64,000 nt of DNA from a virus (lineage: Duplodnaviria; Caudoviricetes), in IMG/VR virus record IMGVR_UViG_3300050491_000011, one strand, 5' to 3'. A program made the position numbers and the translations under genes. Below the pieces are notes generated by a model. The model did no database searches. It was not told where the DNA came from and was given only the letters and a program-made list of their open reading frames with translations. This document shows positions 5,264 through 59,424 of the stretch, piece after piece. Positions within the stretch are counted from its first letter, which is position 1. Every line of letters starts with the position of its first letter.

Positions 5264-5276
5264 GACCGAGGAGGTC
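5264..5276 (+). promoter_or_regulatory. SD-sequestering hairpin GACC-GAGGA-GGTC
   Basis: One of 7 covarying copies; ATG at 5283. Confidence 0.65.
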
Positions 5277-5282
5277 TGTAAC

Positions 5283-5411
5283 ATGAAACAAGTTAAACTG
5301 GTACTCGTTGGCATGATCCTGAGCATTGGCGTATCGACTGCATACTCGACCGGTATCTTCGACGAAGCTGGGCAATACAAGGCACAGCACGCAGCATTCG
5401 CAGCGCAGTAA
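5283..5411 (+). CDS. 42-aa small protein with signal-peptide-like N-terminus
   Basis: MKQVKLVLVGMILSIGVSTAYSTGIFDEAGQYKAQHAAFAAQ; GGAGG RBS. Confidence 0.6.
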   Translation: MKQVKLVLVGMILSIGVSTAYSTGIFDEAGQYKAQHAAFAAQ

Positions 5412-5438
5412 TTATTGCAATCTAAAAATATTCATGCA

Positions 5439-5446
5439 TACATTAC
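5439..5446 (+). promoter_or_regulatory. putative early promoter box TACATTAC
   Basis: Resembles the phiKZ early consensus TATATTAC; recurs in intergenic gaps. Confidence 0.55.
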
Positions 5447-5480
5447 TAACGTAGTCATGCGCTGACTTTTGATACCCACT

Positions 5481-5493
5481 GTCCGTGGAGGAC
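5481..5493 (+). promoter_or_regulatory. SD-sequestering hairpin GTCC-GTGGA-GGAC
   Basis: Covarying copy; ATG at 5499. Confidence 0.65.
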
Positions 5494-5498
5494 GCCCC

Positions 5499-5825
5499 AT
5501 GAATTTCCAAACCGTAGCAGACATCATCATCTGCCTACTCTTCATCTACTTCGCTACAGTACGTACCCGCGTAGTCTGGAAGCATTTGAAGGATAACGGC
5601 GCAGTAACAGTCACCCGCATCTACGGCTGCTGCTGCGTCACTATCGGTTGGAATGGGAAGATAGCCCGATACGTTAAAGTGACTCTGCCGATACTCGCAG
5701 TGCTGCTTTACGGATCGTGGTCTTTCCACTTGATCGGCACTCTTAGCTTCTTAGCTATTGAGCAAGCCATCGCACTCGTTGTAGCTTTATCGCTGTACCT
5801 TGCTGCGCGCTTTGTAACTCGTTGA
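5499..5825 (+). CDS. multi-pass membrane protein
   Basis: MNFQTVADIIICLLF...; three or four hydrophobic segments. Confidence 0.65.
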   Translation: MNFQTVADIIICLLFIYFATVRTRVVWKHLKDNGAVTVTRIYGCCCVTIGWNGKIARYVKVTLPILAVLLYGSWSFHLIGTLSFLAIEQAIALVVALSLYLAARFVTR

Positions 5826-5861
5826 ACCCAAACCCCTATCGTAATACCCTTTGTAATTAAC

Positions 5862-5874
5862 GTCCGTGGAGGAC
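5862..5874 (+). promoter_or_regulatory. SD-sequestering hairpin GTCC-GTGGA-GGAC
   Basis: Covarying copy; ATG at 5881. Confidence 0.65.
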
Positions 5875-5880
5875 AAACAA

Positions 5881-6231
5881 ATGCTCGATATCATCTTCAC
5901 TATCCCAGCTGTAATCATGTTCATGATCATCACCATGGTGGCCGGCTACATCATCGGTAAACTGAAACCAGAAGAACGCTGGGAAGAAGTTGCCATGGCT
6001 TTCTTCACTCTCGGTGACTGGGGCTTCAAGACCACCTTCGCTCGCCGCATGATGCTTCTGTTAAACATCGTAATCGCAGCCGTCTGGATCTACTACATCG
6101 ACACTCCAGTCTTCGTAGCTTTCTGCATGAGTATCATCATCGGTTCCTACATCGGCGCCTACATCTTGAACACCCGTTGCGACATCCCATACCCAGACCG
6201 TGACGCTCTGAAAATGATGTTCGTCAAGTAA
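5881..6231 (+). CDS. membrane protein (about 3 TM)
   Basis: MLDIIFTIPAVIMF...; hydrophobic segments. Confidence 0.65.
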   Translation: MLDIIFTIPAVIMFMIITMVAGYIIGKLKPEERWEEVAMAFFTLGDWGFKTTFARRMMLLLNIVIAAVWIYYIDTPVFVAFCMSIIIGSYIGAYILNTRCDIPYPDRDALKMMFVK

Positions 6232-6299
6232 ATGTAACGATATGTGAGGGTGGCCTAGCCACCCTCATTGTTAATCTTTTTTTTTGGTCGAGGTGTGGG

Positions 6300-7340
6300 A
6301 TGCCTAGTAATAGTAAGAAGCAATATGATCTCATGAAGATCGCTTCGTATAACAAAGAGTTTGCAGAGAAACGCCACATCGATCAGGATGCTGCTCGGGA
6401 ATGGCACAAGGCCGACAAGGAGATGGAGAAGAAGAATAAAGACTTCTACAAGAATCTCCCTGACCACGCCGAAGATTCGAAGAAGAAACCGAAGAAGAAG
6501 CGTACCAGCCAACGTCGTAAACGTGAGAAGGGCGAAGCTCACGAGAAGGCTAGCGATGCTTCGATGGAAGGCGTTGTATCGTCTATCTTGGATCTGTTCA
6601 AGTCCAGTAAGACTATCGACGACATTCCAGACAACGTCAGCGACGCTATGATCGAGAAGCTGTCTAACGATCCTAATGCATTGGCCGGTATGGAACTGCG
6701 TGAAGGTCCGATCGACGTGCGTGGCGCCAACACCCACTTCTATCTGAAGCATTGGTCGAACAACTGGCTGTCTGATGTCGAGACCCATGCCAAGCAGATC
6801 GAAGCCTTCTACAAGAAGTTCATCCCTGCGCGTGTAGCGTATGGCAATGCGCTTGAGAAGATCTATAAGCAATGCGAGAAGATGTCTCCTAAAGAAGCAC
6901 TGGAGTACGCCAAGCCTCGCGTTGACATGGAGAAGATCAAGCTCGGCCGTATTGAGCTGCCTGACTTCCGTAACCTGGCTGTCGATGTCCGTTACTCTGG
7001 TCATGGCGCTAAGCTGTCCCTCGGTAGCCCAGGCAAAGGTCCTGAAACCATGGGCGCTCTCAGCGAAGGCGCTATCCGTAAGATCGTTTCCATCCTGAGT
7101 ATCCTTGTCCGTAGCCACGACTACGAAGAAGACGACTACGGCTGGAACCTCGACGATACGGATGAAGCGAAGTTCTGGATGCATCACTTCCCTGATGACG
7201 ATCGTACTTGGGGTCAGATGCTTGGCCTGTTCCCATGCGCTGGTGACTGGTACGAGTTCTCGTACGATGACGTTCTGAACATGGTTGTCAACAAGATGTA
7301 CCTCGGCTTGAAAGGCTTGGTCGTTAAGTCCGTCAAGTAA
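6300..7340 (+). CDS. probable virion head protein with cleavable propeptide
   Basis: Basic N-terminal segment then ASDASME|GVVSSILDLFK, an S-M-E site typical of phiKZ head-protein processing. Confidence 0.5.
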   Translation: MPSNSKKQYDLMKIASYNKEFAEKRHIDQDAAREWHKADKEMEKKNKDFYKNLPDHAEDSKKKPKKKRTSQRRKREKGEAHEKASDASMEGVVSSILDLFKSSKTIDDIPDNVSDAMIEKLSNDPNALAGMELREGPIDVRGANTHFYLKHWSNNWLSDVETHAKQIEAFYKKFIPARVAYGNALEKIYKQCEKMSPKEALEYAKPRVDMEKIKLGRIELPDFRNLAVDVRYSGHGAKLSLGSPGKGPETMGALSEGAIRKIVSILSILVRSHDYEEDDYGWNLDDTDEAKFWMHHFPDDDRTWGQMLGLFPCAGDWYEFSYDDVLNMVVNKMYLGLKGLVVKSVK

Positions 7341-7369
7341 CATAAGCCCGGCTTCGGCCGGGCTCTATG
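7341..7369 (+). terminator. CATA-AGCCCGGC-TTCG-GCCGGGCT-CTATG hairpin
   Basis: 8-bp stem with UUCG loop right after the stop. Confidence 0.7.
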
Positions 7370-7390
7370 CCGTCAACTTATTTACAAGCA

Positions 7391-58190: not shown

Positions 58191-58264
58191 ACAGTTGTCT
58201 TCTGCTACAGAACTGCTACAATGGACTCGTTCCAAAGTAGTAGTGCAACACCCGTGTAACTAAC

Positions 58265-58277
58265 GACCGTGGAGGTC
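58265..58277 (+). promoter_or_regulatory. SD-sequestering hairpin GACC-GTGGA-GGTC
   Basis: Covarying copy; ATG at 58281. Confidence 0.65.
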
Positions 58278-58280
58278 AAG

Positions 58281-58574
58281 ATGTCGTATGGAGACAAGTT
58301 CAGCTACGACGAAGATTTCGTCGCTCTTTCATCAGATCTAGGTCTGGCGGTACAGGAGCTACGAGATAAGCGTAACGAACTGAACGAGAGCTACAGGTTG
58401 TTAGGAGCGGAGCGCATGACGATGCGCTTGCAAGGCTTAAGGACGGATGAGATTGATATTAAGATCTCGGAAGTATTGGGGGCAATCCGTGAGATTGGAG
58501 CTAAGATTGATTCCACTCAGTCCGCCCACTTAAGTTACTTGCGAAACTGTCAGGTTGGTTATACTGACAGGTAG
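58281..58574 (+). CDS. coiled-coil hypothetical protein
   Basis: GGAGG RBS. Confidence 0.6.
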   Translation: MSYGDKFSYDEDFVALSSDLGLAVQELRDKRNELNESYRLLGAERMTMRLQGLRTDEIDIKISEVLGAIREIGAKIDSTQSAHLSYLRNCQVGYTDR

Positions 58575-58645
58575 CTGTAGGAGACGGGGGTAACACCCCG
58601 TCTTTTTTTTTGTCTGAATAATCGTAATGAAAAAAGTTATGGTCA

Positions 58646-58653
58646 CACATAGT
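58646..58653 (+). promoter_or_regulatory. putative early promoter box CACATAGT
   Basis: Repeat motif; A-tract upstream. Confidence 0.55.
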
Positions 58654-58710
58654 CAGATTAGTGTTCCGCAACATTTAGTGGAACTAATCGACTATTAAAG
58701 GACTATAGCC

Positions 58711-58893
58711 ATGCTTACATTTCTGAGCAACCTGTTTGACAGCAATACCGAAACCCGCGATAAAGCTCGCAACGATCTACGTATCGCAAAGAACTGCTTT
58801 GAACGAGCAATGCGCAATCACGGCATTAACTCAAAAGAAGCAAACCACTGGGCAGCGAAAGCTGACGAAGCTGAGAAAGCCCTGGGTCTGTAA
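58711..58893 (+). CDS. small protein, paralog of 57972-58190
   Basis: FERAMRNHGINSKEANHW; AAAGGA RBS. Confidence 0.65.
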   Translation: MLTFLSNLFDSNTETRDKARNDLRIAKNCFERAMRNHGINSKEANHWAAKADEAEKALGL

Positions 58894-58912
58894 CCCAGAA
58901 GGATGCAACAAG

Positions 58913-59083
58913 ATGAACTTTAAACTCATCGTTACGACAGTCTCATTAACTGCCGCTGGAATAGCGGCTTCTTATGCTGCGTACCGAATAGTGAAGAAGT
59001 CCCGTGAGGAAGGTACTCCAGTCCTCACGGTTATTGTGCAAGCCTACAACACCACCGTTGATGAAATCCGCAACAAGATCTAA
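58913..59083 (+). CDS. 56-aa N-anchored small protein
   Basis: MNFKLIVTTVSLTAAGIAASYAAYRIVKK; AAGGA RBS. Confidence 0.55.
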   Translation: MNFKLIVTTVSLTAAGIAASYAAYRIVKKSREEGTPVLTVIVQAYNTTVDEIRNKI

Positions 59084-59093
59084 ATACCCTAAC

Positions 59094-59106
59094 GACCGAG
59101 GAGGTC
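59094..59106 (+). promoter_or_regulatory. SD-sequestering hairpin GACC-GAGGA-GGTC
   Basis: Covarying copy; 20-nt exact repeat of 5257-5276. Confidence 0.65.
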
Positions 59107-59109
59107 AAC

Positions 59110-59364
59110 ATGAACACTGCATTCCACGAACAAGCAATCATCAAACTGAACAGCCGCTACATGGCTCTGCGTGATCGACTGAAGCTGATGGCTATCCAGC
59201 CTTGCGCTTGGCCAGTTGCTCAAGACCCGCTGTTCCAACGCTTCACTGATTTGATGCTGGATACTGATCCTACTCCTGACAACATCGAGCAGATCACTTC
59301 CGGCATCAATAAACTGATTCTGGTTATCGACGACGAAGTCGATGTCCTTGCTCTAGCTGATTAA
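59110..59364 (+). CDS. hypothetical protein
   Basis: GGAGG RBS. Confidence 0.65.
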   Translation: MNTAFHEQAIIKLNSRYMALRDRLKLMAIQPCAWPVAQDPLFQRFTDLMLDTDPTPDNIEQITSGINKLILVIDDEVDVLALAD

Positions 59365-59411
59365 CTTAAACCCCCGGCGGGAATGTTCCCGCCAACCCCT
59401 TTCTTATAAAC

Positions 59412-59424
59412 GTCCGTGGAGGAC
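59412..59424 (+). promoter_or_regulatory. SD-sequestering hairpin GTCC-GTGGA-GGAC
   Basis: Covarying copy; ATG at 59429. Confidence 0.65.

Follow-up and report, generated by a model that had tools for sequence, protein, structure and literature searches.

In the coat-protein operators of MS2, PP7 and Qbeta and in the gp43 operator of T4, a small hairpin in the translation initiation region is read by one protein through its shape and its loop bases. Local folding of the Shine-Dalgarno (SD) region likewise modulates initiation at the T4 genes e, soc, 49, 38 and 25. Here we describe a family of short hairpins built around the SD of a set of genes in a 64,000-nucleotide (nt) stretch of DNA (hereafter the window) from an uncultured phiKZ-like phage. 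The window comprises bases 65179-129178 of the 188-kb IMG/VR record IMGVR_UViG_3300050491_000011, which is estimated to be 75% complete. Whereas each of the coat-protein and gp43 operators is a single site in its genome, 10 to 20 genes share one type of the putative operator described here, and the SD itself forms the loop; and whereas the T4 initiation-region structures are gene-specific and unrelated to each other, here one conserved covarying motif is found. Current explanations of when phiKZ-like phages express their genes rely on the two RNA polymerases of these phages, and to our knowledge post-transcriptional control of the early genes is almost unexplored. No description of the hairpin motif was found in the searchable literature. 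In kind it is an SD-region operator or structure, while as a family it is new, being multi-copy, tied to orthologous genes and provided with a lineage-specific loop. The hairpin set points to an undescribed mode of translation control in these phages.

The hairpin motif GWCCGWGGAGGWC has seven exact matches in the window, all on the plus strand and each 3-6 nt upstream of an ATG, where 0.05 would be expected by chance and none of 100 shuffles reached seven. Four copies read GACC..GGTC (5264, 18412, 58265, 59094) and three read GTCC..GGAC (5481, 5862, 59412), exactly as an earlier note on this DNA had listed them in position, sequence and proportion. Allowing up to two mismatches brought only four more sites in the window, all with two mismatches and at chance level, so that the motif is sharply bounded. 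The earlier note had nevertheless missed an eighth copy in the window, GGCCGGGGAGGCC (GGCC-GGGGA-GGCC) at 18818-18830 before the GTG at 18837, as well as nine further copies elsewhere in the record. Three of these nine are GACT-GAGGA-AGTC, found by scanning the record for GNGGA loops closed by any perfect stem of 4 bp; in them the loop-adjacent pair is changed from C-G to U-A, turning the SD from GGAGG into GGAAG. For hairpins in general, all combinations of a 4-bp stem and a loop of 3-7 nt were enumerated. Altogether, the record contains 17 copies, each of them on the gene strand with a start codon 1-6 nt downstream.

The core CCGNGGAGG occurs 14 times in forward and not once in reverse orientation in the 188-kb record, always with complementary G-N/N'-C flanks. 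With positions 2, 6 and 12 left free, 14 copies were obtained in the record, all on the plus strand and with positions 2 and 12 always complementary; G-C (at 18818) and C-G (outside the window) appear here as additional pair types. Additional copies lacking covariation had been named beforehand as the finding that would speak against a selected stem; those present in the record are all complementary. The exact 20-nt repeat of 5257-5276 at 59087-59106, also reported earlier, was found as described, and each of its two loci contains a hairpin (5264 and 59094, respectively). No Rfam family covers the hairpin sites of the window at the gathering threshold, the only matches being three transfer RNAs (tRNAs), and window positions 5000-9000 gave no match in the phage collection by megablast.

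An RNA polymerase beta-like subunit identifies the virus as a phiKZ-like phage with a multisubunit RNA polymerase. In this subunit, its nearest cultured relative is Pseudomonas phage pPa_SNUABM_DT01 (hereafter DT01), which infects Pseudomonas aeruginosa, with 40% identity; two window proteins, one of them widespread and the other a class II ribonucleotide reductase, were uninformative for taxonomy. Relatives of about 240-267 kb were recovered by pattern and protein scans of IMG/VR and taken whole. G005 and most single matches of the pattern scan were dismissed as chance hits or T-arms of tRNAs. The phages were assigned to lineages A (G000, G001, G003, G004, G002), B (G007, G009, G014), C (G006), D (G008, G010) and E (DT01), labels that imply no deeper branching order. 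The phage DNA recurs in metagenomes from rhizosphere, soil and compost. P. fluorescens SBW25 supports growth of a DT01-like jumbo phage (bioRxiv 10.1101/2024.08.29.610337), which may belong to this soil clade as a cultured member and hence give a clue to the host.

To assess the stem, we applied a pairing-blind test in six genomes, in which NNCN-GNGGA-NGNN followed by a start codon within 10 nt was searched and complementarity was counted at the three free pairs. On the gene strand, 30, 25, 14 and 100 sites showed zero, one, two and three complementary pairs, respectively, while the corresponding numbers on the opposite strand were 33, 38, 8 and 1. Comparison of the two strands indicates about 99 fully paired elements and at most a handful of broken ones. 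This test serves as the unbiased control for an alignment of 99 copies that had been picked for pairing, in which three of the four pairs vary on both sides; 66 cells are compensated and none is unpaired. Pair 1 is G-C in 79, U-A in 6 and A-U in 5 copies, pair 2 is A-U in 49, U-A in 31, C-G in 7 and G-C in 3, and pair 4 is C-G in 76 and U-A in 14, while pair 3 is an invariant C-G. The covariation score was 0.54 compared with 0.15 for shuffled alignments; none of 500 shuffles reached it, and all slid registers collapsed. The same behaviour was observed between G000 and G001, whose RNA polymerase beta sequences are 97% identical: five orthologous sites with collinear flanks carry compensated double changes (A-U to U-A twice, U-A to C-G twice and G-C to C-G once), and no uncompensated stem change was seen at the orthologous sites of these two genomes. 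The hairpin stem is kept by compensatory change and is thus under selection, which bears out the earlier suggestion that the compensated base change marks a selected stem and no plain repeat. A DNA palindrome recognized by a dimeric DNA-binding protein can be excluded, because position 2 (A or T) is always matched at position 12, while independent half-sites would predict about 50% discordant copies.

The hairpin consists of four Watson-Crick pairs, mostly GWCC/GGWC, closing a loop of 5-6 nt that ends in GGA. The SD sequence GGAGG lies half in the loop (GGA) and half in the 3' arm (GG), 3-8 nt from the start codon; the GGA is invariant in all copies, and 85 of 100 copies read GGAG and 14 read GGAA. 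The predicted stability is about -4.5 kcal/mol (range -1.9 to -6.6), and of 64 copies folded in a 93-nt context, 46 have the hairpin in their minimum-energy structure. The earlier note had stated that the stem pairs half of the SD and hides it; the first part is correct, while hiding is too strong a word for a stem of this stability that leaves the GGA exposed. The loop GWGGA on a short stem also fits the GNRNA pentaloop of the boxB elements of lambda and P22, which is read by the N protein. However, boxB is located in nut sites and not at an SD, the loops UAGGA and UWWGGA of related phages (see below) do not fit, and antitermination with the polymerase of the host has no bearing on these phages.

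Ordinary AGGAG or TAAGGAG SDs serve most of the phage genes. Since about 14 other genes in the genome have a GGAGG SD without the hairpin, the hairpin defines a specific class and is no by-product of strong SDs. The products of the hairpin genes range from 42 to 227 amino acids (aa), several are hydrophobic, and they belong to more than 35 unrelated families. None of them has a significant Pfam match, and only one matches a PHROG.

Phages that were negative at first sight were found to carry hairpins with the same stems and other loops. G006 has eight copies of GWCC/UAGGA/GGWC, G008 and G010 have 12-15 copies each of the same stems around UWWGGA, and DT01 has about eight hairpins of the form NNNC/UWWGGA/GNNN directly before annotated starts of coding sequences, among them those of PA10_00289, PA10_00301, PA10_00303 and PA10_00304. 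At loop position 1, lineages A and B have G (100 copies) and G006, G008, G010 and DT01 have U. Nine gene families retain the hairpin across lineages at protein identities of 30-45%, and it is retained in about three-quarters of the cross-lineage orthologue rows. Loops are uniform in sequence within each lineage and track the lineage rather than the gene, as illustrated by a 130-aa family with GACC-GUGGA-GGUC in lineage A, GUCC-GAGGA-GGAC in B, GUCC-UAGGA-GGAC in C and GUCC-UAAGGA-GGAC in D. Since nine families keep the hairpin while the loop differs per lineage, the element is old and tied to particular genes, and its loop has changed in concert. Judged by these sequence comparisons, the hairpin genes behave as a conserved regulon across lineages, in agreement with the earlier proposal of a marked, co-regulated gene set. 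No such hairpin was found in the first 50 kb of phiKZ, which include early genes and in which ribosome sites are AT-rich and unstructured.

SD pairing does not depend on loop base 1, which nevertheless shows no variation within a lineage and has switched from lineage to lineage at orthologous genes. This pattern is most simply read as co-evolution with one trans-acting reader, and we therefore favour, tentatively, the view that the hairpin is an RNA operator at the SD that is read by a trans-acting factor. In this uncultured jumbo phage of the phiKZ-like, nucleus-forming kind and in related phages, the operator would form a stem-loop within the 5' leaders of small accessory genes that are probably early. 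A sequence- and shape-specific factor, most likely a phage protein and less likely a host protein, would bind the hairpin in competition with the 30S subunit and thereby time or limit the translation of the gene set, while the stem, being only modestly stable (about -4.5 kcal/mol), could be opened by ribosomes in the absence of the factor. With somewhat more reserve, we consider it possible that this clade of nucleus-forming jumbo phages possesses a translational regulon of 10-20 early accessory genes whose sequence-specific RNA-binding protein or nuclease has co-evolved with the loop. If true, this would be a phage-wide post-transcriptional switch, for which no counterpart has so far been described in the Chimalliviridae. 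The hairpin could be used as bait for the factor, to flag a class of functionally uncharacterized accessory genes, and as a compact part for regulated ribosome sites. As a version of the hairpin occurs in the cultured P. aeruginosa phage DT01, the operator idea is directly testable.

Several observations weigh against an operator with a dedicated reader. No homologues of CsrA, RegB, S1 or S21 were found in four complete genomes or in DT01, and a search for proteins confined to phages with GWGGA loops, as compared with their relatives, yielded only spurious out-of-frame shadow ORFs (open reading frames); the latter search is moot, however, since differently looped hairpins are present in the supposedly negative phages. 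Short-patch gene conversion among repeats of 13-20 nt could also have produced the concerted loop change. Among 360 stem cells not a single G-U pair occurs, which is unusual for an RNA helix, and the case for RNA over single-stranded DNA is therefore made mainly by the strand, the fixed SD-like spacing to the start codon and the GGAGG core; one candidate wobble copy with the hallmark flanks lies outside the aligned set (G001:105509). The assignment of the hairpin genes to the early class derives from the promoter-like motif alone (described below), by analogy with other phages (PMC7598289). Finally, two unrelated metatranscriptome runs, from sediment and soil, contain one short contig each over 58231-58420, about 96% identical, which cover one hairpin copy and the start of the 97-aa gene and reveal neither transcript ends nor expression.

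With regard to the reader, the only consistently basic family in the hairpin regulon is a 172-aa protein (isoelectric point 9.2-9.8) that is conserved in lineages A-D and is itself preceded by a hairpin (G000 158944-159462, outside the window; L104:9766-10281). Its structural model (mean pLDDT, the predicted local distance difference test score, of 71) shows a weak likeness to tandem AP2 domains, which bind nucleic acids (Foldseek E = 0.006-0.02). No homologue was found among GenBank phages, DT01 included, and the protein is for this reason only a weak lead as a candidate reader.

The alternative that survives best, although we consider it rather unlikely, is a ribosome-binding module acting in cis only, in which the hairpin pre-folds, shields and tempers a very strong SD (up to AGGAGGU) without any dedicated factor. 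A G-poor, C/A-rich leader would give the ribosome a standby site, and uniform loops would reflect common descent and gene conversion. Standby is a mechanism established for structured ribosome sites (PMC5934652), and the leaders upstream of the hairpins are indeed G-poor. The 30S subunit could open so weak a stem (-1.9 to -6.6 kcal/mol), with the GGA remaining exposed as a toehold, and about one-third of the copies lie no more than 12 nt past an upstream stop codon and would be melted by a ribosome terminating there. It also agrees with such a module that the downstream proteins are diverse, almost all without a known family and apparently prone to turnover, and that the searches for a reader came up empty. 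What it fails to account for is that a loop base irrelevant to the SD is invariant within a lineage and yet switched at many orthologues at once, and that only some genes of an operon have the hairpin. Moreover, the stems remain diverse within a genome, which is unexpected if conversion homogenizes the module.

Host Rsm/CsrA proteins are natural candidates for a reader of the hairpins, because the architecture of the hairpin is that of Rsm targets. They might repress the hairpin genes according to the Gac/Rsm state of the cell, or the early leaders, being abundant, might act as a sponge for them; as the principal explanation we judge this unlikely. As in RsmE-hcnA and the stem-loops of RsmZ, a short stem over the SD exposes an invariant GGA in a loop of 5-6 nt, and many copies occur per regulon. 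The nearest cultured relative infects P. aeruginosa and a DT01-like phage grows on P. fluorescens SBW25, which makes Pseudomonas a possible host of the present phage. ARGGA pentaloops and ANGGAX hexaloops are high-affinity RsmE sites, whose core starts with A (PMC4005645). The earlier note had accurately described the likeness to these targets with G in place of A. In about 140 copies the loop-initial A is replaced by G or U, and loops starting with A are at most sporadic, which argues against host Rsm proteins, one of its two suggested readers, as the main reader. The loop GAGGA does have an A directly before the GGA, but in a register that differs from the Rsm core. The hairpins further deviate from Rsm targets in that the GGA abuts the 3' arm, that there is no phage CsrA gene (PF02599 is absent from G000, G001, G004, G007, G009 and DT01) and that the loop type differs per lineage, which is unexpected for proteins as highly conserved as Rsm.

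An endoribonuclease that cuts within GGAG and shuts off early messages in the manner of T4 RegB appears improbable. RegB cleaves GGAG in the SDs of early T4 messages, and its S1-independent substrate, obtained by systematic evolution of ligands by exponential enrichment, combines a looped, unpaired GGA with a paired 3' G and favours GGAGG (PMC1702504). The predicted geometry of the hairpin is exactly that of this substrate, and as at the T4 RegB sites it is the GGAG(G) of SDs of (here probably) early genes that is involved. However, a search with PF10715 gave one 13-bit match to an acidic 86-aa ORF, which was dismissed, and nothing in five other genomes, and natural structured GGAG sites in T4 resist RegB (PMC1702504). 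The 11-nt, GGAGAAUAAAA-like A-rich 3' context of natural S1-dependent sites is absent; instead, GWC, 1-6 nt and the AUG follow. Furthermore, 14% of the copies have GGAA, which is poorly cut by T4 RegB.

A DNA-level element, i.e. a hairpin or cruciform acting as promoter or replication signal, or a microhomology handle for cassette shuffling like the promoter early stem-loop (PeSL) cassettes of T4, would agree with the Watson-Crick-only covariation without G-T pairs, the exact 20-nt repeat at two loci and the location among variable small genes, but it is very improbable given the fixed SD distance to start codons, the invariable location on the coding strand, the distance to the promoter-like motif of 20-45 nt with internal operon copies lacking a promoter, the retention at orthologous genes with point changes compensated in place, and a GGAGG core that is an SD. 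PeSL cassettes, in which an early promoter and a stem-loop flank mobile ORFs, likewise are repeated short regulatory modules among variable early genes, but their stem-loops are not SDs; an element of that type would have a role in homology without selection for pairing and without a tie to genes, whereas here pairing is selected and tied to orthologous genes. The previously proposed recombination handle is thus at best a secondary function, as the flanks of the compensated orthologous sites are collinear.

The hairpin copies cluster in short plus-strand units that extend from an early-promoter-like motif to a terminator consisting of a hairpin and a T8 run. The motif at the start of the units, TTACAGTCA-Y-ACAT-TAC or a near variant, was found 20 times in forward and never in reverse orientation in G000. 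Written as TAAA-N(11-12)-CA-Y-ACATTAC (variant TTACAGTCAYACATWG), it occurs on the plus strand only, for example at window positions 5437, 7389, 14454, 31988 and 47079, and the copies ahead of hairpin units are lower-scoring variants. In jumbo phages that encode RNA polymerases, such a bioinformatically conserved motif upstream of operons turned out to be an early promoter wherever tested (PMC7598289). By analogy, the motif is a probable early promoter of the virion RNA polymerase, and the hairpin genes are probably early. Since its distance to the first hairpin varies (20-45 nt) and internal genes of the units carry hairpins too, the hairpin is not the promoter. Single units mix hairpin genes with plain-SD genes. 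Translational coupling by a terminating ribosome was considered and rejected, as it fits only the one-third of copies close to an upstream stop codon.

All features of the window given below are on the plus strand. The first hairpin, a pattern match at 5264-5276 (GACC-GAGGA-GGTC) within the 20-nt repeat, precedes a hydrophobic 42-aa ORF (5283-5411) with hairpin-bearing homologues in lineages A2 and D. The adjacent unit (5437-6285) begins with the early-promoter-like core CATACATTAC (5437-5446; putative function by analogy with phiKZ-type early promoters, PMC7598289), 35 nt upstream of the hairpin at 5481-5493, and contains a 108-aa ORF (5499-5825) without Pfam or PHROG match, the hairpin at 5862-5874, a 116-aa ORF (5881-6231) without family match and, at its end, the T-run of a hairpin-plus-T terminator (6277-6285). 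Both hairpins of this unit are pattern matches and read GTCC-GTGGA-GGAC. A terminator T-run at 18342-18349 precedes the next unit, in which the promoter-like core CATACATAGT (18376-18385) lies 27 nt upstream of the hairpin GACC-GTGGA-GGTC (18412-18424, pattern match) of a 126-aa ORF (18429-18809) without family match. It is followed by the eighth copy at 18818-18830, whose G001 orthologue is GCCC..GGGC, and by a 227-aa ORF with a GTG start (18837-19520), which belongs to phrog_12854 and has a nucleotidyltransferase-like GG..DIDL motif. Relatives of this protein have only 137 aa, the additional residues here forming a C-terminal extension.

The hairpin GACC-GTGGA-GGTC at 58265-58277, weakly documented by the contigs of the two metatranscriptomes, precedes a 97-aa ORF (58281-58574) whose lineage D homologues have hairpins with UAAGGA loops, and a terminator T-run follows at 58603-58611. 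Among the datasets listed as matching an 8-kb stretch, none was of RNA. Further downstream are the promoter-like core CACACATAGT (58644-58653), the hairpin GACC-GAGGA-GGTC (59094-59106; G001 orthologue GACT..AGTC) with an 84-aa ORF (59110-59364), and the hairpin GTCC-GTGGA-GGAC (59412-59424, pattern match) with a 177-aa ORF (59429-59962). Neither ORF has a family match, and a terminator T-run at 59995-60003 closes the unit.

Runs of eight to nine T are confined to the plus strand (22 in G000, none in reverse), and this strand bias holds beside minus-strand genes. In the window they are located at 6277, 18342, 28345, 38039, 39776, 45905, 58603, 59995 and 60720. Most of them lie about 8-10 nt past a GC-rich hairpin that often ends in TTTATG, resembling the phiKZ terminator with its TTAT tail. 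A second over-represented word in start regions is (A)GGACTAC-ATG, e.g. GACTACATG, with eight forward and no reverse occurrences in G000 and ten forward occurrences in G001; it may represent another class of standardized ribosome-binding sites. The three tRNA genes detected at the Rfam threshold are located at 23801-25027. At 8730-10382, a 550-aa ORF contains a thymidylate synthase domain in residues 271-550 only, the N-terminal 270 residues lying outside this domain.

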